Shown here piece by piece: positions 6,501 to 61,900 of a stretch of 64,000 nucleotides of DNA (the stretch's first letter is position 1; each line of letters starts with the position of its first letter). The notes beneath the pieces were generated by a model. It was not told where the DNA came from and did not search any database. It was given only the letters and a program-made list of their open reading frames with translations. The position numbers and the translations under genes are program-made. The DNA is from Chiloscyllium plagiosum (lineage: Eukaryota), in contig NC_057756.1 of NCBI RefSeq assembly GCF_004010195.1, positions 2,544,776-2,608,775 on the forward strand, in the 5' to 3' direction.

Positions 6501-6524
6501 CCTCCTTTTCTAGTAGTAATAAAA

Positions 6525-22846: not shown

Positions 22847-22867
22847 AACTTAAGAAATGTAAAGAAG
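22847..22867 (+). CDS. 21-nt heptad micro-exon (E)LKKCKE, butyrophilin/BG-like coiled-coil tail
   Basis: TTTCCTTTCCTGCAG | AACTTAAGAAATGTAAAGAAG | GTGAGA; phase 1-1, exactly 21 nt. Confidence 0.7.
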
Positions 22868-23209
22868 GTGAGAATGCTATCAAAAGCAATGTCTGGACAT
22901 GACGATAAAGAATAGCATAAACGTCACGTTAGGAGATTTAGGAACAATAAGTTATCGCCGATTACATTTTTTTACAAAATTTGGAGTGTGCCAGTTGCTT
23001 TTTTCTCGAGTATAAGAACAAAACAAGGAAGTCTGTTGAATGTAGAGAACTTCGGCAGTTACTGCAAAATAAATCAAACACAAATGTTAAAATGTTTTTC
23101 TTTACATTGTTTGAGAATTCAAAAAAAATCTATTCAAAATTTCATTTTCTTGATATGCTATTCGGTGCTGCTTCATTAATGCTGGGTACTGAAGTTATCA
23201 TTACAAAAT

Positions 23210-23650
23210 ACCCTAGAAAGACTGCAACAAAATTCACATTCATAAAACCGTAAGGAAACTAGTCATCAGCATGCATGCACATCAACTGGTCACAAATAGA
23301 CATGACCAGCTGACATTTATATACAGATACACAGACAAACATGGACACCAGTTTGACTGAAATAATGCATGCAAATTGCGCATGACAAATAAGGATATGC
23401 ACAGAAAAATAAATGCTTTTAATTGAAACAGAAATGTCATTAACAAACAGTTGAGTTGGACATCCATTTACCAAGCTCTCACATTCAGAAATGGAAACGA
23501 TACCAGCGGCCACAGCAATCCAAAACGCCTAAATAGCAGAACACCAACGATTCACCAGAGGCTCACTGATGAGCTTACCTAGCATGGTGACGAAACCTCT
23601 GATAACAAACCCACCAATCCAGCAAGCAAATCTACAAACTGATCCACAAC
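23210..23650 (+). mobile_element. Penelope 3' fragment with hammerhead motif
   Basis: CACTGATGAGCTTACCTAGCATGGTGACGAAACCTC at ~23564-23599; paralogous fragment at ~26430-26860. Confidence 0.65.
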
Positions 23651-25335
23651 CAGACCTAAAAAAAAGCTTTTTTCAAGATATTGTTACTGTCGTATGAATT
23701 AACTTACAATGGTTGCCCATTTTGGTTTTCAGAAATTTTCAAGTGTTCATTGGGGAATAGTGGTTAAAACACTCTGACTGTCTGCTTGTATCATGCCGTC
23801 AAGAAGTTGGTTATGAAACTATGATGAAAGATTGCCCCAGACATTTGCTCTTCAAAAACGTGTATTCATAATAATCCAATTATACACCCTTAAATACAAA
23901 TTAAAATTCGGTTTGGAACCATTCTTTGTTGACGAGACAGAATTACCTTCACATTTATTCGATTAGATAGAGATAAACACCAAGGCGAATATACACGTGA
24001 ATATTATTGAAAACTTTAGAAATTAAAAGTCAGATTCCTGAAATGAGGAAAATCCACAATTTACAGTATTCATTATACTTCAGCATGGGGAACGTAGAAC
24101 AAATATTCAAAACGTTCAGACAAAGGAAGAGCAGGTGCATGACAATTTGAAGTGTTGGGAAAATTATTTGCTCAATCAGAAATGGAATCAGAGTCTTTAG
24201 TTTGAAAATCACATGTTTACAATGACTTAAAATGAAGGACATCATGCTGCAGTGTTACCTTTTGATGTATGATCGCTAAAGACTGTCAAGCGTCTAAGTA
24301 TAATTAATCTAAAAAAAAACACTGCCCAGTAAATTGAGAGGAAATGTTTCCTTGCATTGTATACCCTAGCTGTATTGAAGTTTCCAGTATCTAATAATAA
24401 GCCAGTGTCTTCTTCTCCTGTGGGGCTCCTGCAAAAGCACTGCAACAAGTATTTCACTAGTATTTCCGACCTCTTGTGTAAAATGGATTTCTTCGTACAG
24501 CACGTGCAGTGGTGGAGCTGCAGCTGATGCATTTTACACATTGCCATGTAGCATTTATCTATTAAAGCATATAAAAATGCTTTGTTTGCAAAACAGTCAA
24601 CGTACTTTCTGCGATACTGCTCTGACAACTCCTCCAACACCCATTAGACGGGAGCCATTTTATATGTTTCCGGAATGCCAAGTGGCAATTTGCATTTCAT
24701 ATGTTTTCTTTTCAATTGCACGCTTTTCGTGGGATACAACAGTGCCTGATTCCATTTACTGAGACTTCAAAATTTGCATCTTCGTAAGATTTATTTAAAG
24801 TGCTGAAGAAGTATGTGGTATTAATAATTGATCTTCGAACCAGACATTCTCCACTGTAATTTGAGGCTTGAGAAGAATATCAACAGCATACTTGATTATG
24901 TAATCAGGTCGTGCAGCATTTTTCAACGTGTTATCTAATCTTCATTGGAATTTGGATGGACAGTTTTGGAAAAGATGGGGAAACAATTCAATGTATGTTG
25001 TTGATCTTTATATGCAAAGTCAAATTTCTTTGATATTGCTCATGCACAGGAACAGACCGAAATGTTTCCAAATAGAGCAGTTCCTGGACGGTATCAGAAG
25101 AAATACATAAAATCCGGAAAGTACATGACGTTGCTAGCGAGTGTGGCCTACTCAGAAACGTTTGGTAATTTTCGAGGCTTCATTACAATTCCCCCAACTC
25201 CCAAACCCGTCCAAATAAAGAAAGAAAATTCGTGCCGTACCTACATTTAATGAAAACCTAACCAACAGAATGAAGGTGCTTTGGATCGTAGTTTTGCGAA
25301 ATACTTCATCAGCACACGGCATTCAACTATAGATA

Positions 25336-28295
25336 ATCATTTAAGATTATAAACTTGAAAAAAAAATTGTCGTGGTTTTGGGTATATTCGCCAAGCTACA
25401 AAAGTTTTGGTCCCTGTCAATGTGACATCTTATAGATTTGGAGTGCCATGTGAAACGCTGCTATAATGTGTCTTCTGTAAGCTATTTCGGTCTATTTCTT
25501 CTGCTTCCAGCTGCTAGTCGTGGTTGTTCTTTAAAATGACTAGTATATTCGGTCTCCGTCATTGAAATTGATTTTGAAGTCCATTGCTAATTGCCATGCT
25601 TCTGGACATTCTCTGGCTGCCCTATGTTTACCTTGTCCTATGATCATGGTGTTGCCCCAGTCATAACTGTATCCTTGCCATCCATGTGTATGGTTACTTG
25701 GACAGCTTGTCGTGGCATTTAATGGTCGTTGGTGTTCGTGGATGCATATTGCTAATTGCCTGTCTGTGTGGCCCTATATATTGTTTGGTGCAGTCTTTGC
25801 ATGGAATACTATGAATTCCGTCAGTCTTGCACATTATAAGTATAGAATCCTTTGTCCTTTTGTGTCGTTGCCTGACCGAGGCTGTTGGTTTATGGGCTGT
25901 CACGAACCCATGTGTTCATAAAATTCTGGCTGTCAGTTCCGAGATTTTTTAAAATGTAAGGTCGCGTGGCTAGGGAATAATTTAAAATAAAAGTAGCAAT
26001 TTACAAAATTTGACAATGCTATTTCCTTCCCTGCAGAACTTAAGCATTGTAAAGAAGGTGAGTACACTATTAAAAACAATGTCTGGACATGACAATGAAT
26101 CAGACTTGAAACTCAATGTTGGGAGAAATCGCAAAAAGAAAACCATAAGGTATTATTGCTCGTTTTTTTCAAATAAAATTCAGTGTGCAAAGAGTGTTTT
26201 AATTTACTCTAGTAGAAGAACATAAACAGAGACGATTGAATACGGAGGGCTTCTGCAGTTATTGCAAAATAAATAAGAACATAATGAATGAAAATTCAAA
26301 TGTTTTTACAATCATGTAAATAAAATGGAAAAAGTCTATTCAACGCTTCTTTTTCTAGACATGCCATTCGGTGCTGCTTTATGCATGCTGGATAGTGAAG
26401 TTAACATTATAAAATACCCTTTAAGGACTGCAACAAATTTTACATTAGAAAAGCTGCTGGAAACTGGCCACAAGGATACATTTGCAACAACTAGAGACCA
26501 AAGGACATGATCAACTAATACCAGTAACGATACACACAGACAAAGAGGGACACCAATTTGACTGGAAAAAGGTGTCCATCTTGGAGCACGGCAAACCATG
26601 ACATGCGCAGAAAAATATATATGCTTGGCAGTCAAACCGGAATTCCATTAACAAACAGATAGAATTGGACCCCATTTACCACCCTCTCAGATTCAGAACT
26701 GGAAATGATATCGGCGATCACAGCAATCCAAAACATGTAAGTCGCTGAACACGAATAATTCACCAGAGGCGAAGTGATGATCTGAACTAGCACGGTGACG
26801 AAACTTCTGAAAGAAACCCTCCAGTTCAATGAGCAAATGGGCAACATGATCCACAAACGGAGCTAAAGACAATAATTTCCAAGATGTTATTACTGTCGTT
26901 TGAATGTTTTTTTTTGATCGCCCATTTAGTCTTGCAGAAGTTGTCAAGTATTCAGCTGGGATGGGTGATGAAAATCCTGTGACTTTCTGCTTGTGTCTTG
27001 CCGACAATACATTGGTTTTGTATTTGTGATGAAAGTTCTTCACGGAATTCTACTCTACATATTCATAATAATTCAATTGTGCATGCTGAAATTCAAATTA
27101 AAATGCTGTGTGGAACCATTCCTTTTTGTAGAGACAGAACTACCTTCACATTCATTGGACTAAACAGAGATAATCACAAGACGAGTATAAATGAATACTA
27201 TTGAACACTTCAGACGTTTAAAGTCAGATTCCTGAAATGAGCAAATCTACCATTCACAGAATTCATTATACGTCAGCATGGGGAGAGAAGAATATATAAT
27301 CAAAATCTTTTAGACGAATGAAAAGCAGATGCACGATAAGTTGAAGTGGTGGGAAAATTATTTGTTCGATCCGTTTGCTGTGTGAGTTAGAAATAGCATC
27401 AAAGTCTTGAGTTTTGAAATCGCATTTTTGCAATAGTTTGAAATGAAGGATATCATGCTGCAGTGTTATTTTGCGATATGTGATCCGTGAGAATGTCAAG
27501 GAACTAAGTATAATTACTGTTAAAAATATTTCGCTGCGCAGACAATTGAGAGGAAATGTTTCCATGCAATTTATACCATTGCTGCACTGAAGTTGTAAGT
27601 CTTGTACAATAAGTCAGATTCTTTTTATCCTGTGGTGTTCCTTCAAAACCGCTGCAACAAGTATTCCACGAGTACTACCGACCTCTTGTGCAAAGGGGAA
27701 TTCTTGTTCCAACACGTGCAGTGTTGGATCTGTACCTCGTACATTACACAAATTTTGAAGCCGGCTGTCTGGGCATGTCCTGTCCAACGCAATTGAACAT
27801 TCTTCTACTAAAACGTAAAATTTCTAGCGCTTTGGTTGCTAAACAGTCAACATGATTCGTGCAATGCTATGCCGATATCTCCTGCAACGCTCGTAAAACG
27901 GGAGCGATTTTATATGTTTCGGGAAAGCTACCTGCAACATGGTTACAGTAGATTTATTTTCAATTGCACACCTCTCGTGGAATGCAACAGTTCCTAAGTT
28001 CAAGAACTGAGACTTCATAATTTGCACCTTCTTAAGATTTATTTAATGTTCTAAAGACGTACACAGGATCTAATAACTGGACATACACTTCCCTGGTTTC
28101 AGTTTTAAGAAGTTCATCGACTGCATACTTGATTAATCAGGTCCTGCAAAAGTCTCCAATCTGTTGTCAAAACTGCACTGAATTTGGATGTCCAGTGTTG
28201 GAAACGATGCAAAAACAAATCCCTGTAGGTTGTTGATCTCTAAATGCAAAGTAAAATTTATTTGATAATACTCATGTGCAGGAACAGACTGAAAT
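25336..28295. repeat. Tandem segmental duplication L, copy 2
   Basis: Colinear with 21519-25064; carries a shorter minus-strand Penelope fragment (~25370-25970) and a plus-strand one (~26430-26860). Confidence 0.9.
26037..26057 (+). CDS. 21-nt heptad micro-exon (E)LKHCKE
   Basis: TTTCCTTCCCTGCAG | AACTTAAGCATTGTAAAGAAG | GTGAGT; paralogue of 22847-22867. Confidence 0.7.
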
Positions 28296-28559
28296 GCAAG
28301 AACAGGAAGACATTTTGATCGTGGGACGTGACTCGTTGTCTTCCTGCATCAATTTCTTCAATTTGGTGCTGCTATTGTATTTTTACATGTTTTTAAGCAA
28401 TCGAAATGAGAAATCTGGTTTCCCAATGGGAGAGTTAATTTTTGAAGATACTCGTCGTCGACTTTCCTTTCTTTTGCAGAATTGTTCTGTGAAGATGCTG
28501 CTCCTGTCATACGGTTATTCTCACATTGATGATTTTTAGAGGGATCGTAAAGGCAGAAG

Positions 28560-28960
28560 TTCCAATATTTCTCTTGACATATGTCGCTGCAAACGATTTT
28601 AATTGAGTCTCTTTTATTCATTAAAAAAAACTGGTATAATGAAAGCAGAGTGGGCAGTTCGTTATTTGGTCTGGTTTGACTTTAGCAAGCGGTGTAGTTT
28701 GCAACTGGATGTCAAATTTTATCCAGGATCTCACAAAAGCTGCTGGAGCAAAGAAACAAATCTCCATGCTGATCCTCTCGCTGTCTCCTTCTGTCTCTCT
28801 CTCTCTTACTCTAAAATCTTTCTGAGAAGAAACTGTGCTTGAATTAACCAATCTTTCCAAGCGGTGTATTTTGGGATATTGTTGGAAATTGGGACAGCTC
28901 TTGGTAAGCTTCGTTTTCGTGCCACTTGGGTTTTCAAAGAGTTGTATCAGTGAACTTGAT
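28560..28960 (+). mobile_element. Gypsy LTR-like fragment
   Basis: Resembles the LTR at 31173-31787 (GCTGCTGGA...CCATGCT..TCCT..CTCT block). Confidence 0.4.
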
Positions 28961-28989
28961 CCTGGAGTCGAAGGAATTATCGTAGTTCC

Positions 28990-30000
28990 TGAATGAATAC
29001 TTTGCTTCAGTGTTTGCTCGTGATTGGGATCAAGCCTTTTGTTAGGACAGCAAGGAACAGGCTGACATGCTCGAACAGGTGGATGTTAAAAAGGAGGATG
29101 CACTGGAACGTGTTGAGAAATATGAGGTTATGCAAGTCCCCTGGAATCAGAAGGGATAGACACAAATTTACTACGTAAAGGGCGGGGGACAGACTGCTGT
29201 GCCCTTGGCAATGATCTTTGAGTCCTCATTGTCCACTGGTGTAGTATGAGATCGTTGGAGGGTGGTTAATGTCATTCCTTTTTTCAAGCAAGATAACTCT
29301 GGGAATATAAGGTCTGTCAGTCTTACATCAGTGGTTGGAAAATTATTGGATAGGATTCTGAGAACTCTTTGAGTCCATGATCATAGATCCCACCAAGCTG
29401 CCACCCAAGTTAATAGCTTTATTAAAAGGTGTATAGCATGTTGACTTTCGTGAGACATGGGATTGATTTTAAGAGCTATGAAGTGATACAGCAGATAAAA
29501 AGTAATGGTTCGACGACACTTGCAATGTTGTGTTCAATGCTGATCACCTCATTACAGGGAGGATGTGGAAGCTTTTAGAGACGTTGCAAAGGAGGTTGAA
29601 CAGGAGAGCTTGACTGAGCTAAGTCTTTTTTCTCATTAAAGCGAAGACGGATGAAAGGTAACTTAAAGGAAGTGTAGAAAATGATGGGAGGCAAAGATAG
29701 AGTGGATAGGCAGAGAAGTTTTCCCACGGGGGAGATAGTTGCCATAGTTCTAAGGGAATTCTAGCAAGGTTGAACGGAAATGTCCGAGTTTGATTCTTTA
29801 GAGGGTGATTGATGAATGCCGTACCTGCAGTAATAGTTGAATCAGATACACCAGGGACATCTAAGCGACTCTTGGAGAAGCACACGAATGGTAGTAAAAT
29901 GTAGGGGTATGCGTTAGTTTGATCTTCAACGAAAAATACCGCACAACATTTAGGGCTGAATAGCCTGTACTGTGTTGTACTATTCTATGTTCGATGTTAC
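28990..30000 (+). mobile_element. CR1 LINE fragment with large internal deletions
   Basis: [23 protein letters not shown] motifs then ORF2 C-terminus and tail GGGCTGAATAGCCTGTACTGTGTTGTAC. Confidence 0.85.
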
Positions 30001-30009
30001 ACTATTCAT

Positions 30010-31172
30010 GATGGAGAGAACGGAAATGTTATTCCGATTAATCAACATTCTTAAAGGCATAAAACTCTCAAGCTGGCACAGTTTCAAAAGGAGATGGTAA
30101 GCATACCAATCGGACATAATCGAAGCGAAGTACACTGACTGAAGCTCAGCTGTAGTGTTGGCAACGAAATCACAAGTTACACAAAGATTAGGTGGGCACT
30201 GTCATGAAGTCAATTCAATAGCAAGTTCATTGGCTAGAGAAAGTGGACAAATCCACTTATATTTTCAAGTTGGACTTGTTCAGAGGGTACTCACCTTTGT
30301 CCAAAAGAAAAGTAAAGACTCTATCAGTTGATGGTCATACCGTTTGATAAAGTAAATCAACCAACCACATTTCGCACACTAACAAATAAGTTCATTTTTG
30401 GACTAGCCAATTGTGTCGTTTATATTGATGACTTTGTGAATTTTAGTCACACGTAAAAGAGATCTATGTAACTTTTAGGTGTACGAAAACACGTAACAAA
30501 TTTTAGAAAAGTAGCAGCACCACTTAATGAATAACCAAACAAATGCGAGAGGTATCATTGGACAGTGGACTGTCAGCAGGCATTCAAAGGCCCGAAAGCT
30601 GCGTCAACCACTGCTCCATTGTTCTCCACACTTAATTACGAAAAGAAATCCAGGCTGGCTATTGATGTGAGTGTCGGTATTGTACGCTTACAGGAGGATG
30701 ATAAGAAAATATAAAGACCTAAAGGCTATTTCTCCAGGAAATCGAGCATTCATTAGCAGACAGATTCAACACTTGAGAAGTAAACTTTGAGCTTCGTGTT
30801 ACAACATTTCTACATTTGCGTTATCACTGTTGTATTTATAAAAATCACAAACACTGGTCAACATCCAATGAAGTTTGTGGAGAAATTTAAGGACAAAAAT
30901 TCGAAACGAAGTTTGCAGTTACGGCCATTTAATTTGACAATTGTGCATGTGGGAGTACGAGACTATCTCATTGCTGACATATTGTCCTGACTTGTGTGTC
31001 AAGTTAGGCATTTGGTGGCAGGAGTAAATGTACTGAAACAGAATGCAGTAAAGCATGTGTACTTTTTATAATCAATGAAATGCATGTGTCCGCTTAGTGT
31101 ACTAACAATTTAAGGGTAACGAGATGTAAGACGAAGCTATCTTTGGATATTGATTTTTTTAAAGGGGGGAAG
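30010..31172 (+). mobile_element. Gypsy (Gmr1-like) RT-RNase H fragment ending at a polypurine tract
   Basis: KLDLFRGY (~30267), VYIDD (TATATTGATGAC 30421-30432), WTVDCQQAF, GYFSRK, FNLTIVHV..RDYLIADILS* (ORF 30787-30990); PPT AAAGGGGGGAAG 31161-31172. Confidence 0.85.
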
Positions 31173-31787
31173 TGTGATGATGCTGCTTTTTAAAAACAAC
31201 TATTCTTTGATGTTTTTTTTTGCTAAGAGGGATTACAAAGGCAACATTTCCAAAATCTGGGAATATCTAAATGAGAACGATTTCGATCGCTTTATTTAAA
31301 AAAAAACTTTATAATGAAGGGAGATTGGCTATTTCCCCCTGTTCAGTGTTTGCTTTTTTTTTAAAGCAATATATTTTGTTTGCAGCTGGTCGTCATATTT
31401 TAGCTTGGCACCTAAAGGCTCTGCTGGACTAAATAAACTGTTCCATGCCTATTCCTTCTCTCTGGCATCTCTCCTGTGAGGCCCTGTGCTTGAATTTACC
31501 TGCTTACAAATGGGAGAATTATAGGATGTTACAGGAAATCGGACCAGCTTTTTGTTCATGATTGTTTTTGTCTCTTTTGTGCATTCACACATTCAGGTTA
31601 TTATATATTCTGTTCTCTTTTTTCATGTATAAATAAACTGCGAATTGTTTAAAACCAAATAGTTGGGCTAGCTACATTACTGCTGGAATGTCCGCTGTAC
31701 ACTTACTTAAAACAACGAGGAAACCTAAGTTCCGGGCTGGTTGCCTTCTTGAAATGATTCGAAGGGGTTCTGCCCTCGTCCATAACA
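31173..31787 (+). mobile_element. 3' LTR of the Gmr1-like Gypsy element
   Basis: Begins TGTGATGA immediately after the PPT, contains AATAAA (~31633), ends ...GTCCATAACA (TG...CA). Confidence 0.75.
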
Positions 31788-32833: not shown

Positions 32834-32908
32834 ATGAAACAGTTCGTCATCCGTAGTTCCTTTGTCCTTATATTCCTGTTGAATTTCCTCCTCCCAAGCT
32901 GAAGTCAG
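32834..32908 (+). pseudogene. Decayed signal-peptide (leader) exon candidate
   Basis: ATG reads MKQFVIRSSFVLIFLLNFLLPS*SQ (basic N-region, hydrophobic core), in-frame TGA at 32900-32902, followed by CAG/TTAAGT resembling a mutated donor. Confidence 0.4.
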
Positions 32909-33789: not shown

Positions 33790-36690
33790 AAGGGGAGGAG
33801 TAGACAGAGAGCAGATGAATGCAAAACGACTGGCGGGCTGAAGAGCACATACTTTAGTGCAAGGATAAGGCAGATTAATATAGGGATCCGATTGGTACGT
33901 GGGATATGACGTTCTTGTTATCACGGAGACTTGGTTGAAGGAAGACCATGATTGGCAAGTAAATGCTATTGGGTATAAATGCTTCAGACCGGCAGGGAGG
34001 GACGCAAAAGGAGAAATGTGTTGCATTGCTGATCAGGGAAGATACCATGATTGTGCGAAAGGAGGATACTATGGGAGGGCTTGAACAGTGAGGCGTCATG
34101 GGTGGAACGTAGAAATAAGAGGCGTACAAGTACATTGGTGGGGCTATATTATAGGCCTCCCAACAGTGAGCACGAATAAGAAGGACAATTAGGCGAACAA
34201 ATTATGGAAAGGTTTAGAGGCAACAGGGCGGTGATGAAGGGAGATTTTAATTTTTATCAACATTGACTAGGATACACTTAATGTCAGAAGTCAGGATGGG
34301 CAGAACTTGCAAGGAAAGTCCAGGAAAATTTATAGAGCATTGTGTCAATAGTCCGACAAGGAAAGAGGCCATATTGGACTGGTGTTGGGAGTGAGTCAAG
34401 CCAGGTGGTGGAAGTTGTAGAGGGGGATTTCTTTGAAAATAGTGACCACAATTCTGTACGTTTCCAAATATTTTAGACAAAAATGACAGTGGTCCTACGA
34501 GACGAATACTAAACTGGGCCAAGGTCAGTTATATCAAAATTAGGCAGGAGCTGTGGAACGTGGATTGGACATAGCTATTTGAAGGAAAGTCCACATTTGA
34601 TATGTGGGAGGATTTCAAAAATAGGTTGAAGTTTATGCAGGATAGGCATGTCGTTTTGAAGGCAAAGGATTGGAAAGTGAACCGTGAATGACAGAAGAAA
34701 CCGTGCGACTAGCAAAGAGGAAAAGGAAAGGACCCAGACTGCTAAGAACAGAAAGGGCCTTGGAGGAATATTTGAAGAGTAGGACCAATCTGAAACGAGG
34801 TATCAAACGGGCTAAAACCGATCATCAAATAACTTTTGTGATCAGAATTAAGGAGAAGCTGAAGGCCTTTTATTCTTCTATAAGAAGCCAGAGCATAACC
34901 AGAGAAAGGATTGTTCCACCAAAGGATAAGAAAGGAAGGTTGTGTGAAGAACCTCGGAAAATTAAGGAGATTCACAATAATTACTTCGCATCAGTGTTTA
35001 CTGAGGAACGGGAAGGGGGAAATGCTGAGATTAGAGATTGAAGTTTGTTTACTCTGGATCACGTTGACAGAAGGAGTGAAGATGCGTTAGATAGGCTAAA
35101 GGATATTAAATTGGACAAATCCCCATGGCCGAATGGGATCTATCCCATATTCGTGAGCGAGGCGAGAGAGGAAATACCTTGGTTCCCAGCATATATGTTT
35201 GTAGTATCCTTATTCACAGTTGAGGTGCCACAGGACTGGAGGGTTGCTCATGTTTCCACCCGTACAGGAATGGTAGTAGCATTTCCATGCAATTACAGAC
35301 CAGTGAGCCTGACGTCAGTTGTGGGAATGTTGCCGGAGAAGATACTGAGGGATAAAATCTAATCATATTTGGAAAACAATGAGCTTATCAGTGATATACA
35401 GCGTGGTTTTGTGCGGGGAGATCGTGCCTTATCAATTTAATAGAGCTCTTTGAGGATCCGACGAAGTTGATAGATGAAGGAATGGTTGTAGGTGACATAC
35501 ACGTGGACTTTAGTCAGGTGTCTGATAAGCTTCCCCGTGGTAGACTACTGGAGAAAGTAAAGTCATATGGTGTGCAGAGTGCTCCAGCTAGGTGGACAAA
35601 TAACTGGTTGAGCAACAAGACAGAGAGAGTAGTAGTCGAAGGGAGTTTCTCGAAATGGAGAAAGTTGACCAGAGGTGTTCCACAGGGATTAATACTGGGC
35701 CCAAAGTTTTTTGCAATATACACAAATGATCTGGAAGAGAGCATTGTTTGCCTGACCAATAAGTTTGCAGATGACACGAAGATTTGAGGAGTATCATAAC
35801 TCATTGGGGACTGTCAAGAAATACAGGAGAATATAGATTGACTGGAGAGTTGGGCGGAGAAGTGGCAGATGGAGTTCAATCCAGCCATATTTGAGGTGAT
35901 GCATTTTGGAAAGTCTAATTCTAGAGCGAACTATACTATAAACGAAACATCCTTGACAAAGGTTGATGAACAGAGTTCTGGGGGATCAGGTCCATTATAT
36001 CCTGATGCACAGGTGGATAGAGTGGTCAAGAAGACATATGGTATGATTGCCTTCATCGGACTGGATGTTGACTATAAGAGCAGGCGGGCCATGTTAAAAT
36101 CATACAAGACTTTGGATCAGCCAGTTTAGAATACTGCGTCTAATTCTGGTGGCCACATTTTCAAAAGGATGTGGACGCTTTGGAGAGGGTGCAGAGAATG
36201 TTTACGAAGATGTTGCCTGGTGTGAAAGGAGCTAGGAATGAAAAGAGGTTGAGTGGGTTAGGATTGTTTTCATTGGAAAAAAGGAGATTGAGGAGGCGAC
36301 ATGATTGAATTTTACAAAATCATGAAGGGTATTGACAGGGTAGTTTGAGATAATTTTATTCCCAGATTGACGGATTCCATAACGAGTGGTCAGGTGTTCA
36401 AGGTGAGAGGTGAAAAGTTTAAGGCGGATATAAGAGGCAATTACTTTACACAGAGGATGGTAGGTGCCTGGAACGTGTTTCCAGCAGACGTTGTAGAGAC
36501 AGGCACGTTAGAATCATTTAAGGTGCGTCTCGGTGGATGCATGAATAGGTAGGGAGCAGAGGGATGTAGATGCTTAGGAATTGGTCGATAGGTTTAGACA
36601 GTGGATTTGGATCAGCTCTGGCTTGGAGGGCGATAGGACCTGTTCCTGGATTGCAAATTTTCTTTAATCTTGTTCTTTGTTTGTAGTCAG
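33790..36690 (+). mobile_element. CR1 LINE, near-complete but disrupted ORF2 (AP endonuclease plus RT)
   Basis: YDVLVITETWL (ORF 33899), YYRPP, GDFN, SDH (34441-34449), KSP.P.GI, NYRPVSLTSVVG, GVPQG, KFADDTK (ORF 35467), 3' tail. Confidence 0.95.
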
Positions 36691-41583: not shown

Positions 41584-41604
41584 AGCTTCAGAAGAGCAAA
41601 GAAG
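41584..41604 (+). CDS. 21-nt heptad micro-exon (E)LQKSKE
   Basis: CCTTATGTCTACAG | AGCTTCAGAAGAGCAAAGAAG | GTGAGG. Confidence 0.7.
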
Positions 41605-43289: not shown

Positions 43290-43310
43290 CGTTCAGAAAA
43301 TTTGAAGATA
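43290..43310 (+). pseudogene. Heptad micro-exon copy (A)FRKFED with dead donor
   Basis: GTCTTACAG | CGTTCAGAAAATTTGAAGATA | TTGAGA; paralogue of 58947-58967. Confidence 0.6.
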
Positions 43311-44138: not shown

Positions 44139-44159
44139 ATTATGCAGCCAAAGAAGCTG
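44139..44159 (+). pseudogene. Heptad micro-exon copy (D)YAAKEA with dead donor
   Basis: TTCTGCTTGCAG | ATTATGCAGCCAAAGAAGCTG | GGGAGT; paralogue of 51237-51257 and 61423-61443. Confidence 0.65.
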
Positions 44160-45019
44160 GGGAGTTTATCAGCAGTAATTGGATTTTACTGTGACAGTAA
44201 TGCTCAGAATAAGCCAAAACGGGTTGTTCTGCTCCTGTGTTCGAAGTTAGAATGAAACGAATTTAAATTAAATACATGCTTGCTATGAAATGATTCCTGA
44301 GTTGTGCAGATAACGAGAATTACATTTGGTCTTGGATCAGAATGGGAATACGAGGGACTGAAATAATGCAGATGCAAGTGAAATAGTATTAATTCTATTA
44401 TTCAGCATTATTGGAATTGTAGCATAATTCTCAAGCAAGGTGAATCTGCAGCATTGCTCTCAGTAAGCAATGTTGACAGCAAAACCAGAGTTCATTCGCA
44501 GCACAGATTTTTAGCTGTGATGACCAGATGAATTGGATGATGAACATAAATTATAATGCCAAAGACTGAAACATATATTCCACATTTTCTCGTGTCAGTT
44601 AATTTGAAGTCATAATGTAGCAGGGAATGCATTTGCTAAATGAACAATATCACCAGCGGATTAAACCGGTAGTAATTTTCAAGTCCACTAAAATTATGTT
44701 GTCAATTTGATTACATATGGAATTGTATTGAGAATTCTCTAATTCTACACAATAGACAACATGTTCTGCGAATCCATCCTCAGGTAAATTGATAGTCAGA
44801 GAAGTATCAGGTAATGGAAATTTAGGAAAGCTTTGAAGAAATGTAAATCATTGAATTCCAATGATGCAAATAACATTAGGCATTCTCAATCACTTCGTAC
44901 AATTAGAACTTGAACTCTTCAATCTTTTCTATCGTTTTTCATCACTAAGTTGAAACAGGAGAGTTATGGTGAATGGCCACAAAGTTCTTGCCCACTGACA
45001 GTGTGATCATTTGCCTTGC

Positions 45020-48676: not shown

Positions 48677-48697
48677 CGTTCAGAAAATGTCAAGAAG
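48677..48697 (+). pseudogene. Heptad micro-exon copy (A)FRKCQE with dead donor
   Basis: GACTTTCAG | CGTTCAGAAAATGTCAAGAAG | TTGAGA. Confidence 0.65.
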
Positions 48698-51236: not shown

Positions 51237-51257
51237 GTTACGTCGTCAAAGAAGCTG
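51237..51257 (+). CDS. 21-nt heptad micro-exon (G)YVVKEA
   Basis: CTTGTTTCCACTTGCAG | GTTACGTCGTCAAAGAAGCTG | GTGAGT. Confidence 0.7.
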
Positions 51258-51608: not shown

Positions 51609-51633
51609 ATATGAAGAAAGAAGTGCAAGGAAG
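51609..51633 (+). pseudogene. Heptad micro-exon copy with dead acceptor and 4-nt insertion
   Basis: TTTTCCCTGCGA | ATATGAAG(AAAG)AAGTGCAAGGAAG | GTGAGG; paralogue of 61880-61900. Confidence 0.65.
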
Positions 51634-53232: not shown

Positions 53233-53294
<62 letters not shown>

Positions 53295-53348
53295 GATCTA
53301 TCTATATATCTATCTATTTATCTATCTATTTATCTATCTGTCTCTCTC

Positions 53349-53387
<39 letters not shown>

Positions 53388-53471
53388 NNNNNNNNNNNNN
53401 NNNNNNNNNNNNNNNNNNNNNNNNNNNNNNNNNNNNNNNNNNNNNNNNNNNNNNNNNNNNNNNNNNNNNNN

Positions 53472-53526
<55 letters not shown>

Positions 53527-53580
53527 TACACACACGCACACATGCACACGTGCGCGCACACACACGCACATACATATACA
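53233..53580. repeat. Compound microsatellite (TCTA)n, assembly gap, (TA)n, (CA)n
   Basis: TCTA repeats 53233-53387, 84 N at 53388-53471, TA repeats to ~53528, imperfect CA/CG to ~53580. Confidence 0.98.
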
Positions 53581-53619
53581 TGAATTGAGATGCAAATGTA
53601 GTTCAGTTAAACAAACAGA

Positions 53620-54390
53620 ACACTTACTGATAGATTTTATATGGTATAAAATTGAGGGTACAGTGGACAGTGAAGACAATTATCTAAGAGTATCTTGGGA
53701 TCTTGATGTCCCGTGCCAATTAGCCAAGCAGTAGATGTTGCTTTAATAAAATAAATTCGAGCAGTTTTTTTTGTAAAACAACTCACATCAGGAATTACAC
53801 AGTCCATATTAGGAAATGTTAAGCCGAGAGTTTGAGGGACTCTGGTACATATGTCATTCAAAGTGGTATTACAGATTGACGGTGTGGGGAAGAATGCATT
53901 TGGCAAGTATGAGAAAACCATAAGAAAAGTTTCCCTGTTTCTTACCAGTACAGGCCTTGACTTACTAGACGAACTTGGATTAAATGCAATTGTTTTTCCC
54001 CTGGAAGTTCATACGTTGAGGCTTGACCTTGAACACTGTTATAAAGCTTTAGATAAGGTAAGAACGAATGTCTTTTCTGCATGGCAGGGAGGTTCAAAGC
54101 TACATGGGAAAGGTTGTAGTTGAGAGTGGAAATACTTAAAAGTCAATTGTGGAGCAATGTTTAAATACAGAGTTTGCTTCGTAAACGGCATTCACTTCTA
54201 TATAAAGTAATACATGCAGTCAGAGTTATGCATTTAAAATATATTCTGTTAAATGCATGAAATGTAAATCCTTGCATGGATTGAACCAAACGCAGGCAAA
54301 TAGGACAGATTTGTTTTTAGAAACATGGTTGGTTTGGACCAATTCTATTGAAGAGCAGGTTTTCTTGCTGCATGCATGCAGGATTCTACG
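53620..54390 (+). mobile_element. Old CR1 fragment (paralogous remnant starts at ~63580)
   Basis: Degenerate KIGGTVDSEDNYLRV.WDLD, RDSGVHMS.KV..QID and CR1 tail. Confidence 0.65.
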
Positions 54391-56384
54391 AGCATAAAAT
54401 GATCAATATGATCTCAGTAATAGATCTTGTTTCCATTTGTCCATTTCATTTCATTTAATATTCCATTGCACGTTTGCAGATCTAGCAAACGCAAATATCT
54501 GATGAGTATTTTCATATTTGAAATCACTAAACAATCTTGCAGTGCCCTTGTTGGCCACAATCCTGTGAGATGCCAATGCCATGGAATTTTATTATCCTCC
54601 GCATGTGTTGAAAATACTTATGATGAAGGAGATGCTCACTCTAAAAAACTGTATTAAAATCGTAAGTGACTGCTGGATTTTAGTTTACAAAATGAGGAAT
54701 CGTCTCCAAAGGTATGAAAATTTTGCGAAATACATTAGGCGATTAACAGGAACTGTCGTGAACATGAGTTTATTGGTAAACTGCTTTGAGATGTTTTGTA
54801 TACAAGAAACATCAGTTATATAAATCCTTTGAACTTTTTCTAACTGAGGATAAATCGAATGAGGGATACACCCTTGGCCAGTTTGGGCGACCGACAATTT
54901 AAGTGTGAATAAGAGTTGTGACAATTAAAATTGAGGAAGCAATCAACACATGTATTATTATAAAACTGTATAGAAGAGCAGAAGTCGTGAACATTATGCA
55001 TTTCCTTTGAGAAAATTTGAGGGATGAAGTAAAGTTGAGATATACAGCACAGAAAGATAATGACATTAACGTTAGCTGCAATAAAATCTATTGAATTCTG
55101 TGAACATAAAAGAATGACAATATGTATCTGTTCTAAAAGTATAATATAAATCGACATAGATTACGAAAATAACAGTCAGAAGATCCACATAATTTGGCAA
55201 TAATTTAAGTTTGTTGGATCTGTTTTAGACGTAAAAGTAAGGGCCACGGTATTTCAAGCGTTGCTTCCTTGTTTCTTCTTTACATTTTAAACACGTACAT
55301 AGTACAATATCTATAGTTCTAATCCAATAAGGAGTATTGTAGAAATCCGTTATTTAATTTAACCACAACGACAAAATTCATGAACCCAAAGAGGAAATGC
55401 ATTCATACTTATGTTGCCTGAAGTTTCAACATTTAAATTCAAAAAACGACTACCTGTACGTGAACACAAACAAACTCTCATTGAAAATGATAAACATGAT
55501 TAATGCATTTGCTAATGGTGTGTGGGTCTTCAAACATTCCAAACAAATCCAACCAAATTTACGAAGAAATGCAAAGTAACAACAGCTAATGCAGTAAATA
55601 TTACATAGAAAACGGTGAAAAAACTGCAATTGTCATGTTGATGGTTAAGATTGTGGGAAAAAATGGCTAAAGTTTTGTTGAACGAAAGTTGGATTTAGAT
55701 ATGTTTTGTTTGATAAAACGCGATCAATTCAGAAGAATTGCATTACAGTTGTAAAATAATCACCCTGCACGCCTTTCCTCACAGAGGTGAGGCTAGTAAA
55801 AAGTCTAACTGTTGGTTATTATGTATTTCACCTTGATTTTATGGGTTTATAATCTGAATGGCAAATGTGTCACGATGTTATTTGCATTCACTATCCTGAA
55901 TAACCTTTTAAATTTGCTTCAAATGTGGCTTCAAAGTGTGTGTCAAAGGTTGTCCTCGTTCAATCTGCTCTGCCGAGAAACGATCCAAAGATCCATGGGA
56001 CATGCATAATACACGCAGATTGCATGTAGAGTAGGGGCGGGGAATGGAAGACATTGGAAGCTGAAACATGCTTTCGATGTGTAAATAAATTGTCTTGGCA
56101 TTGCTATGAACACTTAAAGTTGTTTAGCAAATCACATTTTCCATATCAGTCTGACGTTAAACGTGGCAGTATACGATGAAGTGTTAGACACAGTTAATGT
56201 CACTTGCATTTCTGGCACAAAATTGGAAATGTATTTATCCCTGAACATTTGGACACTAGGTACTTCATGATAGAAGCTTGCTGTGACATAATGAATGCCA
56301 ACACATGTTTTGTTTGTCAGTACATTTGAAAGAAAAATGAATCATCTACGACACAGTACCTTGCACCATCTGGAGCTGGCTCAG

Positions 56385-56580
56385 TAATGTCTTGCTGGAA
56401 AAGAACAGCAGATTTAACAGCATTCCAGGACCAGTAGTCATCGACGTTTTCATCAGAAGACCTTCCTCAGGAGTCGATACTTCGATTCTCCTGCTCCTCA
56501 GATGTTGTTCAACCAGCTATGGTTTTCCCGCAGCACACTTTTGGAATGCTTTCTTCAGCCTCTGCAGTCCTCATCTTTTT
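56385..56580. mobile_element. Older fold-back element of the family at 63681-63869
   Basis: GCTGGAAAAGAACAGCAG...CGACGTTT / TCGATTCTCCTGCTCCTCAGATG...CAGCACAC arms; absent from the paralogous site near 47340. Confidence 0.7.
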
Positions 56581-56989
56581 CTGCTCTCTGTAATGTATCC
56601 AACTTTTTAGGGAAGGTGAACATTTTGTTAGGCATGCTGCAATGTTTCAGCATGAGATCTTAAATAATTTTAACTGTTATGCAACACCTTTTGACAAAAA
56701 TTGGACACGTCTAGTATCGACACTGAATTAATCAAGCAGAGATTGACTTCATGCTGAGTACAGACAGGAAGTACATAAGACATCTCCTAGTGTCCCATTT
56801 GGAATTTCTTGCACTTTACACCCAATAAGCTATCCAAAACGAATTCCTCCGATTATGGGCATGGTTTCCAGAAACGCAACAGCAGTAGACAAGTCAAAAC
56901 ACCAGATAATAGTACTCACATATTAACATACAAATAGTTGGATATTTGAATTTAGTGTTCACATCTGAATTTCTGAAACGCGAACAAAG

Positions 56990-58040
56990 GCAAAGTTTGT
57001 TGGTGGAGTGTTGATTTTCAGGCTGAAAGCCTGTGACCAGATGTGTGCATGAATAATTTGGGGCTGGATTCACTGCTTTGCAGTATTTTTATAAATGATT
57101 TGGATGTGAACATAGGAGGTATATTTCATACTTTTACAAGTTGCAAAATTGCAAGCATAGGGGATAGTGAATAAGGTTACCTCAGAATTAAACGGGGTCT
57201 TGATCATAAGGGCCAATGGACTGAGCAGTGGCAGGTGGTGTATGGTTTTGAGAAATGTGCTGTGCCACATTTTGGAAGGACGAATAAAAGTAGGATGTAC
57301 ACACTTAATGGTAATGTCCGGATCAGTGCAGCTGTGCAGCTCTTGAAATGCAGGTTTTCAGTCCCTTGAAAGTAGTGTCGCAGATAGACTGAATAGTGAC
57401 AATGGAGTTTGGAATGCTTTGCTTTATTGATCGGAGCATTCCATACAGGAGTTGGGAAAGCATGCTGTGGTTGTAGAGAAATTTCGTTAGTCCACGTTTG
57501 GAATATTGCATTTAATTAGACCTCCCTCCTGTCAGAATGTGCTGTGACACTTGGAAGGCTTCTGAAAAGGTGTATAAGGACGTTTCCAGGATTGCAGGAT
57601 TTGAGTAAAATTGGGATACTGAATAAGCTGTGGCTGTTTTCACTGAACTATGGAATGTCGAGGTCTGTCCTTATAAGGTTTATGAAACCGTAAGAGGCAT
57701 GAATAGGGCAAATAGACAGAGTCTTGTCCCTAGGGTGATGGAGTACAAATCTAGAGATCATAAGTTTACATGACAGGAGAAAAAATAGTAAAAGGAAACT
57801 GAGGGGCAAATTAGTCACGCAGGGGTTGGTGCATGTAGGGAATGAGACGACATAGAAGATGGTAGAGAAAGGTACCCTTCCAAACTTCAACCGGTGTCTG
57901 ACTCGGTATATGACTGGAAAGGCTTTGGAGCAATTTCGGCCAAGTACTGGCAAATGAGACTAAAATAGGTTCGCATGACTGTTCGGAATAAATGTGATGA
58001 ACTGAACATTCTGCTTCCATACTTTAAATCTGTATAACTC
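56990..58040 (+). mobile_element. CR1 LINE fragment specific to copy 3
   Basis: WKPVT...LGL..F..FINDLD, SPRLEYCI, LRGKL..Q.LVHV.NE motifs and CR1 tail. Confidence 0.8.
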
Positions 58041-58946
58041 TAGGGCTTCACGAAGAAGCACTGTCACCTGATAACCGGCAGCACTTAACCTCATAAGAAA
58101 ATACGCCATTGCCTCATTAGGTATGTCATTATCTGCATCTTATACATTTATCCATCAACTACTTCTTTGAGAACTTGAATTCTTTCAGGTTTCGAGAACA
58201 AAGTGACTGCACAGAAACATAAACTGATGCTTAAGTTCAACTGTCAGCATTTCCACGTATTCAGTTGCCACTGCTATCTGTGTGTTAAAGGAATCTGAGA
58301 CTTCAGTCTTGCTATCGCAGCAATAAATTCTAATTGCATAATTATGAGTTTGACATCAATAACTTGTCCCGTTACATCAAACTATTAAATGCATGCATTT
58401 AAATACGAACTATCAATAAATATTTCGTCGCCATGAACTCCAGGCCAATCATTCATCAGAAGCATTAGAAACATTCCATCAGCTTTACGCCATCACCTAA
58501 ATTGACCCCTTAAATCTTACTTATTTAGGACTATATCCGAATTAATCTGGCACATGCACAGGAAGCACCGGGCTGAAAGAACAGATTAGCACTTGGTTTA
58601 CAAGCAGTCCAAATATGCATTTATGACACACACCCCATATACTGTTACACGTTCTCAATATGAATTAGGTTCATTTCATCTATGGGTAGTGATTGCATTG
58701 CCCAGGCAATTGCCATTCACAGTTTTTGATCCATTAGATTATCATAAGCTGATGCACATTGATTGATATGCTGGCGTCGTTTTAGATCATGAAATGAAAA
58801 TCAGCATTCAGATTTTGTGGAACTCTGATTTTTGAATGACAGCAAAAGAGTTGTACTATTATCTGCACTGCTGTCAATATTCGTGGGTTATTGAGACGAC
58901 TACACTGCCTTCGTAAATATTTGTAACTTCCTGTTGAATCTTACAG

Positions 58947-58967
58947 CATTCAGAAAATGCCAAGAAG
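58947..58967 (+). CDS. 21-nt heptad micro-exon (A)FRKCQE
   Basis: AATCTTACAG | CATTCAGAAAATGCCAAGAAG | GTGAGA. Confidence 0.7.
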
Positions 58968-61422
58968 GTGAGAACCCTAAAACTCTGCAGATACTCTGCA
59001 GCTGAAATGACAGCGAAATGTGATTGACATAGAAAGTCTTCAATTCTGATGGAATTAGATTAATAAATAATGTTGGTGTGCTTTGCTAGAAAAAAATGGT
59101 TAAAAGGGTTCCATCTGTTCGATGCCATGGTTATTAACCCTCGTTATCCAATATGAAATATACATTGAAAATCTGTCTAACGTCTAAAACCATGGCCGAC
59201 CATTAAGTACTAGTAAATAGAAAACTGGTACAATCTTGTACAACATCACAAATACGCAAAAACACTTTGTGTTTATGCAATCAGTTGATAAACCTGGCAG
59301 TATCCAGAACATATACATAGACCATACTGTGAACGCTGCTATGTATTAGGCCACAGACATTCAAAACATTTCAAGAAAATTTTCGTAACAGTAACGTTTT
59401 CAACAGATATAAGTTGGATATTCCAGAAGAGATGCAGCTTGTCAAAACATTCATTTTTAAAGCAAAGTTATTTAGTCTACCGAATGAAAAACCCACAAAC
59501 CAAAGCAGACTTTACAATAACAACTATCTGAAAACCCAATGGATGCGTTAGCCCACCAAACATAAGACAGCACTGTCCCGGTTTCGTACAAGATCCCATA
59601 AGCACTCCATCTGGCTAAAATATAAAGTCAAACATCAGTTCTCACAGGAAAGAAAGATAGCTGGCAGGATTATTCAGAGATTACTGTGTGAAACATGGAA
59701 CTTTCCTTTTCCCAGCAGATTCTCGGGGTCCCAACCGAATACTAAACAAAACTGGAAATTTGTTTCAACTGGGAGAAAGAGTCTCTCCAACTGCATGGTA
59801 TAACTGTCCATAAAAATAAACAAACTGGATTATCTCCTTTCCCGGATTGTTGCCTGGGGCAGATTCTGGTAGCCATAATTAAAGTGACATAAATTCAGAC
59901 AATTCAGTATATCAGTTCGTTATGTCTCCTTCATTAAAAAACAAAGGAAAACTGAACCTTTTTAGAGATGCAGCAGTGTCACAGTACGCAATAAAATGCA
60001 AACTTACAGTAGTTCTCGTCTTAAAACACAATCAATGACATTTTCGCTGCCTCAAATGAACACCAATATAATTATATCCGAGCATTCACAATGCCTAAAA
60101 CGAATTTACATTAGAAATTTGTCCAGCCACTAAACCTCACATTTATGGACAGCCCAGGAAACAAGGTGAAAAGTCGATCGGTCTTTTCCACTAGCTTGCA
60201 TATGTTCACGATGAGTGTGTTGCATGTACGGATTGAGCTGCCAGAATAAGTGGTGAAGGCAGCTGCAATTACAACACGAAAAAACATTTTGATGGTAGAT
60301 TGAAATGAAGTGTTCAGAGGGACGTAGATCAAGTAATGGCAATTTGTACTCGAGTAGTTTCTGATTTCTGATCGTCATGGACGAGTTGGAGCGAAGGATC
60401 TGTTTCTCTGTTGTACATTTCTATGATTCGAAGAACTGACCATCTTTTAGTTTTTATGTGCATGCCACACATTCATTTAAATGTCACTTCATTGCGAAAA
60501 CGGCACATGTCTTATGATATGGCATCCTATACTTCACCCATGATCAAACATTTTTATCGGCTAATTTAAGAGAAAGGACTTTGGCAGTGATCTCACAGGC
60601 AATATTCATTGGAGCACATGCAGTGGAATCTGCAGCCATTCTCCAGTAACAATTCGCGGAGCATTACGTCTTCACAAACAGTAACATACAACATTTTCTT
60701 CAGCAAGTGTCACCATACATGGGATCTAAAATTGCAGACAAACTTCTCCACATTTGTTCTAATACATTGCACATTTGGTATCCTAAAATCATACACTTGT
60801 CATTATGGATAATAAAATAAGAAAAAAAAAACAGCAACTGCACAATGGGTTAACGAACACTTAGTATTCCCAGTTCTTTCTCCACAGGTGAGAAAATAAG
60901 TTTCATCGTCACAGTATCGTTTCTGACATCAACATGTCAATGAATTTACATAAGAGTCTTTATCTTATTCAAACAAGATTTATTTGCATTAATTTTATGA
61001 ACGATGGAGCGTTAGCCATTATATGCATTTTCTATATGAACGTCATTCAGCATGGTATGATGCACCAGCAGAAATGTATTCACAAAATTCAGGCTATGCC
61101 TAAGAAACTGCAAGCAAAAAAAAAGGTACATTCCATATTGAGTAAGTAGAATGCATTTCAGAACGAAATGATGAAATATTAGATATACAGAATTTCTAGT
61201 CAGTACTATATGGTAAAATATAACAAATAATAACAAAGAAACAACTGTTGTCAAAGTTTAGTCAGGATTAATGTTGAGATTAAGTGAAGTATAAAAAAGA
61301 AGGAGTGCCTCAATTCATTAGCACGGAGCTAAATTCTCTATATTTCCAATAATAACGACTACTGCATCCAATTCATAATATATTGCTACAGCAGAAACTA
61401 GTTGCCATTTTCCCATTTGCAG

Positions 61423-61443
61423 ATTATGCAGCCAAAAATGTTT
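61423..61443 (+). CDS. 21-nt heptad micro-exon (D)YAAKNV
   Basis: TTTTCCCATTTGCAG | ATTATGCAGCCAAAAATGTTT | GTGAGA. Confidence 0.65.
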
Positions 61444-61577
61444 GTGAGATTATGTCAGAAAAAAAGACTTAGCTGTGATGGGAATTTTCACATTAAACCA
61501 ACATAAAATGTTCTGTTAGAATTCAGAATGAAAGAATTTTTTCTTTTATTTAATATGTGCTTTCTGTCTCTGTGCAG

Positions 61578-61594
61578 TTGATAAAACCAAGTGA
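61578..61594 (+). CDS. Candidate stop-containing (terminal) exon start, xDKTK*
   Basis: CTTTCTGTCTCTGTGCAG acceptor 134 nt after the previous donor; TGA at 61592-61594 in phase-1 frame. Confidence 0.4.
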
Positions 61595-61879
61595 TTCCGT
61601 TGCTTTGCAGCTATCTAGAGATACATTTAATCATGAATCAGAATTGGAATATCAGCGATCAAATAATGTAGATGTAACTAAAATAGTTCTAAATTACATT
61701 TCAATTCGTTGAGCCATTTGCACATTTAAATCGTATTTGTTAGAAATATGAGTATTGCTGCAGAACTCGCTGCTAAGTTAACTTTGCAATATTGCTGTCA
61801 ATAATCATATTTACCTGAAAAAGCAGAAATTTAAAAAAAACATGAAATACGATTCATATTTTACTAATTTGCCCTACAG

Positions 61880-61900
61880 ATATGAAGAAGTGCATGGAAG
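61880..61900 (+). CDS. 21-nt heptad micro-exon (D/Y)MKKCME
   Basis: TTACTAATTTGCCCTACAG | ATATGAAGAAGTGCATGGAAG | GTGAGA, with a branch-point-like TACTAAT. Confidence 0.7.

Follow-up and report, generated by a model that had tools for sequence, protein, structure and literature searches.

A 64,000-nt stretch of the Chiloscyllium plagiosum genome (GCF_004010195.1, NC_057756.1:2,544,776-2,608,775, forward strand; here called the window) contains seven 21-nt segments that are part of a far larger array of 21-nt exons and are not products of chance. The whole array is on the + strand of this contig (C47) between about 2.320 and 2.734 Mb, spans ~413 kb, and is the only such locus in the 3.56 Gb of genome searched for pattern and domain matches. 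We consider it probable that these are genuine cassette exons of phase 1-1 and that at least 53 of them, each 21 nt long, make up a single co-linear array predicted to encode a heptad rod. The sequence read comprises 354 kb of C47, from -130 kb to +224 kb in window coordinates; upstream of -130 kb the array is described by pattern coordinates only.

The array is specific in strand, exon length and location. The untrained pattern YAG-N21-GTRAG matches the + strand of the 354 kb 52 times, compared with a mean of 18.4 and a maximum of 29 for controls of other lengths and the - strand (P about 1e-10). Within the window there are nine + strand matches, two of which (15659 and 50966) are not heptad-like, against a control mean of 2.71 (maximum 5 in 55 controls consisting of other lengths, 12-39, and the - strand; Poisson P 0.002). 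When splice flanks are scored alone only a length of 21 stands out, with 51 sites on the + strand and five on the - strand, and no other exon length from 9 to 129 nt, in steps of 3, is enriched over the - strand. A PWM search of both strands of the 354 kb (score ≥ 16) gives 50 sites on the + strand and none on the - strand, a set that is partly circular because the seeds were picked for being heptad-like; ten non-seed PWM matches in the first 264 kb, with GTATG or GTACG donors, likewise read as heptads. The introns between the 21-nt exons in the 354 kb range from 0.4 to 31 kb. A genome-wide scan for clusters of such exons, suggested in the first-pass annotation, concentrates the matches at this same locus: for four patterns, 9 of 11, 4 of 4, 4 of 7 and 6 of 7 matches fall on the + strand of C47 (2,320,162-2,725,815), and reversed-pattern controls return only 0-1 matches genome-wide. 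These pattern matches add at least three further exons upstream of the 354-kb stretch, bringing the total to at least 53.

The exons also share a reading frame. At frame offset 2 none of the 50 exons in the 354 kb contains a stop codon, compared with 16 and 14 of the 50 in the other two frames. This corresponds to phase 1-1, with the first codon split 1+2 between neighbouring exons; 44 of the 50 exons end in G, the base with which a split D, E, A or G codon opens. Of the 50 exons, 45 have a hydrophobic residue at codon 2, 29 have K at codon 4, 14 have Cys at codon 5 and 24 have E at codon 7. Several heptad types can be distinguished: type A, (D/E)-[LMF]-K-K-C-K-E; type A', A-F-R-K-C-Q-E; type B, x-[YF]-A-A-K-E-A or x-[LF]-A-K-E-Q-A; and type C, D-L-E-N-E-R-I.

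The seven intact exons in the window are those of the first-pass annotation, whose coordinates are exact and whose predicted peptide (first codon split 1+2) we reproduced; each exon is preceded by a pyrimidine-rich tract and a CAG acceptor and followed by a GTGAG donor, as had been described, and all are on the + strand. Type A is represented at 22847..22867 (ELKKCKE; PWM score 46.6), 26037..26057 (ELKHCKE), 41584..41604 (ELQKSKE) and 61880..61900 (YMKKCME), type A' at 58947..58967 (AFRKCQE), and type B at 51237..51257 (GYVVKEA) and 61423..61443 (DYAAKNV). The exons at 61423 and 61880 are separated by a 436-nt intron, and because exon 61423 ends in T the next split codon reads Y. The 39-kb extent proposed at first (22847-61900) does hold these seven sites, but the array reaches from about -224.6 kb to +188.7 kb in window coordinates. 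The suggestion that the first two exons may belong to a separate upstream gene copy is not supported: they are a local duplicate pair, identical at 19/21 positions, inside a continuous array that extends more than 220 kb further upstream of them with no large exon intervening. Exon 22847 is also close in sequence to upstream exons, and its flanks have no homology to theirs.

Joined in series, the exons would yield a rod about 370 residues long, with one heptad from each exon; it is predicted to be K/E/A-rich and alpha-helical, whether as a coiled coil or as a single charged helix. Since every exon is 21 nt long and of phase 1-1, any subset of exons leaves the reading frame intact and the heptads in register, and rod length could thus be set by exon skipping; over evolutionary time it could also change by exon birth and death. 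The array itself is best explained as having grown by tandem duplication. Within the 354 kb, no first or last exon of the parent gene was identified, nor any exon of a length other than 21 nt. The most ambitious form of this proposal, that a single shark gene spanning more than 400 kb splices more than 50 consecutive 21-nt micro-exons, with introns of up to 31 kb between them, to give a BG-like heptad rod, is offered tentatively, and to our knowledge the splicing of fifty 21-nt exons across introns of that size has no precedent. A literature search found no array comparable to one of tandem-duplicated heptad or coiled-coil micro-exons, nothing relevant on 21-bp or 21-nt exons, and no report combining butyrophilin, shark and heptad. 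Were the single-gene reading true, the array would surpass in size every micro-exon array described so far, its rod would be tuned in length by ongoing exon birth, death and skipping, and the BG-type tail would either date from before cartilaginous and bony vertebrates diverged or have arisen twice. Expression of the array would mean that the one-heptad-per-21-nt-exon design of BG and butyrophilin tails also occurs outside birds and mammals and is workable on a roughly hundredfold genomic scale, and would provide a test case for how the spliceosome defines dozens of 21-nt exons amid multi-kilobase introns.

The comparison with BG genes was part of the first-pass annotation, which described one heptad per 21-nt exon as the design of butyrophilin-family tails and, in expanded form, of chicken BG genes; the published accounts agree, with only a few copies in butyrophilins (PMC5938342, PMC4046983). 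As described there, chicken BG tails draw on 27-38 exons, each of 21 nt and beginning with a codon split 1+2 (PMC5938342), the exon number varies through duplication and loss, and the tail is presumed to be a charged alpha-helical coiled coil (PMC5938342, PMC4046983); butyrophilins are described as having a few 21-nt heptad exons after the TM exon, with heptad numbers that differ among species (PMC12841164, PMC4046983). By these descriptions, the shark array has in common with chicken BG the serial 21-nt exons, the single heptad encoded by each, and the 1+2 split codon, and with the butyrophilins (BTN/BTNL) the 21-nt heptad exons and their varying number. One version of the cassette-exon reading is that the array encodes the cytoplasmic tail of an Ig-superfamily receptor of the butyrophilin/BG family, with signal-peptide, IgV (possibly IgC) and TM exons upstream of C47:2.32 Mb, and we regard this as possible, if on balance doubtful. 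The combination of serial 21-nt exons, split first codon, one heptad per exon, tandem expansion and variation in exon number is as in BG, and butyrophilins with variable heptad numbers are annotated in cartilaginous fishes (PMC12841164). C47 itself carries 9 of the 38 C2-set_2 Ig matches of the genome, though at 5.69-10.21 Mb. The 1-1 phase also fits Ig and TM exons.

Several observations argue against this receptor-tail version. The first-pass annotation had pointed to sequence outside the window as the place to look for intact Ig/TM and B30.2 exons, and the stretch between -130 kb and +224 kb yielded none. Among its + strand ORFs at least 75-80 aa long, no Ig, TM, PRY or SPRY exon was found, and no PRY, SPRY or other domain match was found in + strand ORFs downstream to +224 kb; the long ORFs there (up to 288 aa) have no Pfam match and resemble retroelement debris. 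An Ig-motif regular expression matches the 354 kb three times on the + strand and six times on the - strand, none convincingly, and TM-like ORFs (23 on the + strand, 43 on the - strand) give no signal. One TM-like ORF beside a heptad at about -110.4 kb was rejected as the translated polypyrimidine tract preceding a decayed or 18-nt exon copy. Genome-wide, no V-set match near the locus is among the best 150 of 1319 candidates, which is weak evidence, and no PRY match on C47 is among the best 150 of 292; among the matches listed, a PRY/B30.2 cluster lies on another contig, C37. With all 67 MHC_I candidates scored, the 45 matches are all on C37 or small contigs and none is on C47.

There are clear differences from the published descriptions of chicken BG. 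BG genes have their 27-38 exons in a compact gene, compared with at least 53 over about 413 kb in the shark; signal, IgV and TM exons are directly upstream in BG, whereas none were found here from -130 kb to +224 kb, the array itself beginning near -224.6 kb; and the hydrophobic core falls at codons 4 and 7 in BG but at codons 2 and 5 in the shark, with Cys frequent at codon 5. BG is MHC-linked in chicken, whereas the shark locus is off the contig carrying MHC class I. Butyrophilins differ from the shark locus in having IgV, IgC and terminal B30.2 together with few heptads, as no PRY, SPRY or Ig exon was found within the 354 kb, and in their MHC linkage, which is frequent but not obligatory. 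Because no Ig, TM or B30.2 exon was found in the 354 kb, the locus is off the MHC/B30.2 contig, and the hydrophobic register is unlike that of BG, family membership is putative. The earlier suggestion of an immune receptor family with a BG-like tail thus keeps its exon design, and 'immune receptor' is best taken as a resemblance of design rather than as demonstrated membership.

The array also contains dead copies, at least 13 as judged by body similarity. Six dead copies are in the window, all on the + strand. Two are of type A': that at 43290..43310 (FRKFED) retains its acceptor and has TT in place of the GT of the donor, and that at 48677..48697 (FRKCQE), one mismatch from the exon at +85906, has the same lesion. 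The type B copy at 44139..44159 has a body identical to that of the live exon at +87181 (YAAKEA) and a GG donor in place of GT. A decayed type A copy at 44348..44368 has neither AG nor GT and contains an in-frame stop; another, at 51613..51633, retains a GTGAG donor, has lost the acceptor AG (ctgcga) and carries a 3-nt insertion. Finally, the type C copy at 54480..54500 (LANANI) retains its acceptor and has lost its donor. The TT donor common to 43290 and 48677 indicates that the dead state itself has been copied. If the array is expressed, live exons lying beside freshly dead copies would provide an opportunity for direct study of how a modular protein changes length through exon birth and death.

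These dead copies raise the question of whether the array is a decaying relic that once served a gene and has since ceased to be spliced or expressed as a unit, its intact exons being the survivors of neutral decay; we think this unlikely, less so than the other alternatives considered below, and if it were so the locus would record a large gene lost in shark evolution. We located 45 copy sites by intron-flank probes alone, 28 with AG and GT intact and 17 without, so that about 38 % of the exon copies in the downstream part are dead, mostly by donor loss. The sites are intact in a fraction of 0.62, near the 0.65 expected from neutral decay of 4 nt, and single exons are accordingly not individually protected. 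The duplication of dead states and the lack of detected large flanking exons also fit a relic. Against this, body mismatches number 3.18 in the 28 intact sites and 6.29 in the 17 non-intact sites (P 0.0003), a contrast weakened by five of the 17 that may be plain deletions, while flank identity is alike in the two groups (79.9 vs 79.3 %); body conservation thus goes with splice-site integrity among copies whose flanks are equally old. In the upstream part, exons are 17-20/21 identical to each other while their introns have lost detectable homology, as is the case for the flanks of 12 of the 13 exon pairs with four or fewer mismatches, a pattern that neutral decay cannot yield. All 50 scored exons are, moreover, open in one frame. 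Over 40 paralogue pairs exon identity is 0.837 and aligned intron identity 0.727; codon differences between paralogues, on the other hand, are mostly non-synonymous (82, compared with 14 synonymous), a point against the cassette-exon reading. The downstream part consists of repeated A'-B-A-C units within segmental duplicates about 80 % identical, and is a younger segmental expansion; the upstream part is older, with only the exons and their splice signals kept.

Other kinds of parent gene are less probable still than a relic. It is improbable that the array encodes the neck or rod of a non-Ig protein, an extracellular coiled coil such as that of a type II C-type lectin receptor, in which core cysteines could form inter-chain disulfides. 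The Cys at heptad position 5 in 14 of the 50 exons, beside the hydrophobic position 2, and the failure to find an Ig exon are consistent with such a neck, and shuffled extracellular modules typically have exons of phase 1-1. Known lectin necks, however, use repeat exons of 63-69 nt rather than 21 nt, no domain of any kind was found in ORFs downstream to +224 kb, and with all 133 Lectin_C candidates scored there is none on C47 at E ≤ 1e-6, which is mild evidence as three-exon CTLDs could score more weakly.

A triadin/junctin-type gene, with its K/E-rich region of micro-exons, would be comparable in the size of its locus, in the number of its micro-exons and in the K/E-rich nature of its product, TRDN itself being about 420 kb with dozens of micro-exons. 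We know of no strict 21-nt exon size or heptad register in triadin, and PF05279 (Asp-B-Hydro_N, the N-terminal region of triadin, junctin and ASPH) matches only C4 and C3, with none on C47 among all 34 candidates scored; we reject this candidate as very improbable on that absence, unless the shark gene is without the domain. Least credible of all are chance matches or fragments of transposable elements, for while LINE relics abound in the window, copies of a mobile element would lie dispersed over the genome on both strands, and the strand, length and locus specificity of the array refute both.

The seven 21-nt plus-strand segments of the first-pass annotation (at 22847, 26037, 41584, 51237, 58947, 61423 and 61880) are exact in position and description, each with a pyrimidine-rich tract and CAG before it and GTGAG after it, and with the first codon split 1+2 across the intron they give the same heptads (ELKKCKE, ELKHCKE, ELQKSKE, GYVVKEA, AFRKCQE, DYAAKNV and YMKKCME). 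The untrained pattern YAG-N(k)-GTRAG with k=21 matches nine times on this strand of the window, against a mean of 2.71 (maximum 5; P 0.002) for 55 controls comprising other lengths from 12 to 39 and the minus strand; two of the nine, at 15659 and 50966, are not heptad-like. The proposed scan for such clusters was run over 354 kb of the 3.56-Gb assembly (-130000 to +224000, signed positions being relative to the window start) and gives 52 plus-strand matches at k=21, compared to a control mean of 18.4 (maximum 29; P about 1e-10). A position weight matrix trained on 30 heptad-like strict matches identifies 50 sites on the plus strand and none on the minus strand at a score of at least 16, and in the first 264 kb ten non-seed matches with GTATG or GTACG donors likewise encode heptads, such as FAKEQA and LAKEQA. 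When intron flanks alone are scored, 21 nt is the only exon length enriched (51 plus-strand versus 5 minus-strand sites).

These exon types are almost absent elsewhere in the genome. In four genome-wide pattern searches the plus strand of contig NC_057756.1 accounts for 9/11, 4/4, 4/7 and 6/7 matches, all between 2,320,162 and 2,725,815, and reversed-pattern controls give zero or one. The searches add plus-strand exons at 2,320,162, 2,320,562 (with a GC-type donor) and 2,384,704, and together with the sites in the 354 kb they extend the array to roughly 413 kb (about -224.6 kb to +188.7 kb) and from seven to at least 53 exons; the first-pass annotation covered about a tenth of the array, and the 5' end is presumed to lie near 2.32 Mb. 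Introns between consecutive scored exons range from 401 to 31,357 nt (median 3,466). LINE reverse-transcriptase relics lie within long introns (3726-4469, 12214-12558 and 35395-35784, all plus strand; RVT_1, best E 4e-27), and others like them are spread over the whole 354 kb. Near-exact copies of a type B exon (see below) and its donor are also present on two small unplaced contigs, C40851 (1052-1074, minus) and C100091 (32989-33011, minus), and may be haplotigs of the array locus or unplaced additional copies.

All 50 scored exons are open in frame offset 2 and the other two frames contain stops in 16 and 14 of them, a count that is partly circular for the 30 seeds, which were picked as heptad-like. 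Heptad position 1 is D, E or A in 42 of the 50, position 2 is L, F, M, Y, I or V in 45, position 4 is K in 29, position 5 is C in 14, and position 7 is E in 24 and A in 14; of the 350 residues, 172 are K, E, D or R. The exons fall into four types, which in the downstream half follow one another repeatedly as A' (FRKCQE), B (YAAKEA), A (MKKCKE) and C (LENERI); in the upstream part xAKEQA exons alternate with type A, and a B-to-A intron length of about 420-470 nt is seen repeatedly. The exons are predicted to encode an alpha-helical rod of modular build and about 370 residues, which could be a single charged helix or form a coiled coil. SRRM4-dependent neuronal micro-exons typically have a UGC motif just before the 3' splice site, and acceptors ending in TGCAG precede 16 of the 50 scored exons, although these are not independent evidence because the copies are paralogues.

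The first-pass annotation read the segments as the coiled-coil tail of a butyrophilin- or chicken BG-like gene, and the design stands up better than the family. In the accounts consulted (PMC5938342, PMC4046983), the signal, IgV and TM exons of chicken BG genes precede 27-38 exons of 21 nt and a few of 18 or 24 nt, with the first codon split 1+2 and hydrophobic residues at the fourth and last codons, and the heptads of mammalian BTNs are few and are followed by B30.2; cartilaginous fishes are described as having annotated BTNs that vary in their number of heptads and often map to the chromosome with MHC class I (PMC12841164). The shark array shares with BG, as so described, exon length, phase, one heptad per exon and growth by duplication, and even a would-be 18-nt exon: a copy of the -88345 exon at -110321 (9680-9697 in flanking stretch L004) has its GT 3 nt earlier (GTAACA). 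It differs in being far larger, its introns reaching 31 kb, in having its hydrophobic register at codons 2 and 5, and in its frequent Cys. The intact Ig/TM and B30.2 exons that were to be sought outside the window were not found in the 354 kb, and there is no MHC linkage. The array would thus work like a BG tail, a likeness of design and not a family assignment; that it belongs to a BG/BTN-family gene we regard as doubtful.

Domain searches bear on the same point. Pfam scans covered plus-strand stop-to-stop ORFs of at least 75-80 aa in the flanking loci, leaving out four that straddle locus joins, and in the window ORFs of at least 95 aa on both strands plus plus-strand ORFs of 80-94 aa; none of these ORFs contains an Ig, PRY, SPRY or lectin domain, the only matches being to reverse-transcriptase and endonuclease relics. 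An Ig-fold regular expression shows no plus-strand excess (3 matches versus 6). Among the 150 PRY candidates scored of 292 genome-wide none is on the array contig and the B30.2 genes cluster on contig C37; with all 67 MHC class I candidates scored, matches fall only on C37 and small contigs. None of the 150 V-set candidates scored of 1319 is near the array, a sample that carries little weight for a single locus. On C37 the PRY/B30.2 exon cluster is very large (about 27-34 Mb), and MHC class I exons lie at about 0.45-17 Mb. Nine of the 38 C2-set_2 matches in the genome are on the array contig, at 5.69-10.21 Mb and at least 3 Mb from the array; they are CD80-like, include a plus-strand V-set and C2-set_2 pair at 10,206,275 and 10,208,040, and look like a cluster of B7/nectin/butyrophilin-like genes.

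Because every exon-defined set was ascertained through exon similarity, three less biased tests of conservation were chosen. Upstream, between -126 kb and +42 kb, 12 of 13 exon pairs with at most 4 mismatches per 21 nt have flank scores at the level of unrelated sequence; downstream, between +51 and +189 kb, the flanks are homologous in all 31 pairs of this kind. In 40 non-overlapping blastn pairs aligned through both exons (median length 75 nt), identity is 0.837 in the exon (840 positions), 0.833 in the splice flank and 0.727 in the aligned intron. A census using intron-flank probes without the exon and splice region, and requiring at least two flank matches, finds 45 sites, 28 with AG and GT intact and 17 without; flank identity is alike (79.9 and 79.3%), yet exon bodies differ by 3.18 and 6.29 mismatches per 21 respectively (Mann-Whitney P 0.0003). 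Conservation confined to the exon, as in the upstream part, is expected from selection or exon-limited conversion and not from neutral decay. Against strong constraint, the intact fraction of 0.62 is near the 0.65 predicted for neutral loss of four bases, five of the 17 non-intact sites may be deletions, and paralogue codon differences are 82 non-synonymous to 14 synonymous. We take the constraint to act on the length, phase, splice signals and heptad pattern of exons that are in use, single exons being dispensable. We consider it probable that the micro-exon array is real, under selection and codes for a modular rod of heptads, and unlikely that it is a largely defunct relic. An improbable alternative is that the exons encode the neck of a lectin with a CTLD; no CTLD is found on the contig at E <= 1e-6. 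A triadin/junctin gene was rejected, PF05279 matches being confined to contigs C4 and C3.

When exon bodies alone are used for scanning, eight additional plus-strand sites and one minus-strand site differ from a live exon by no more than 3 mismatches; the plus-strand sites are mostly left with the acceptor kept and the donor lost. Six dead copies, all plus strand, lie inside the window. Two of type A' (43290-43310 and 48677-48697) share a donor lesion, TT in place of GT, indicating that the dead state itself was spread by later segmental duplication. The body of the copy at 44139 equals that of the live exon at +87181 but its donor is GG; that at 44348 lacks both AG and GT and has an in-frame stop, and those at 51613 and 54480 have lost the acceptor and the donor respectively. 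The array has grown most recently at +119.9 to +122.3 kb, where a two-exon unit of types A and B, about 1.16 kb long, has undergone recent tandem triplication (+119944 to +122281; 5944-8281 in flanking stretch L018), with about 88% identity, introns included, in an alignment run whose scoring was distrusted only for alignments of 60-64%.
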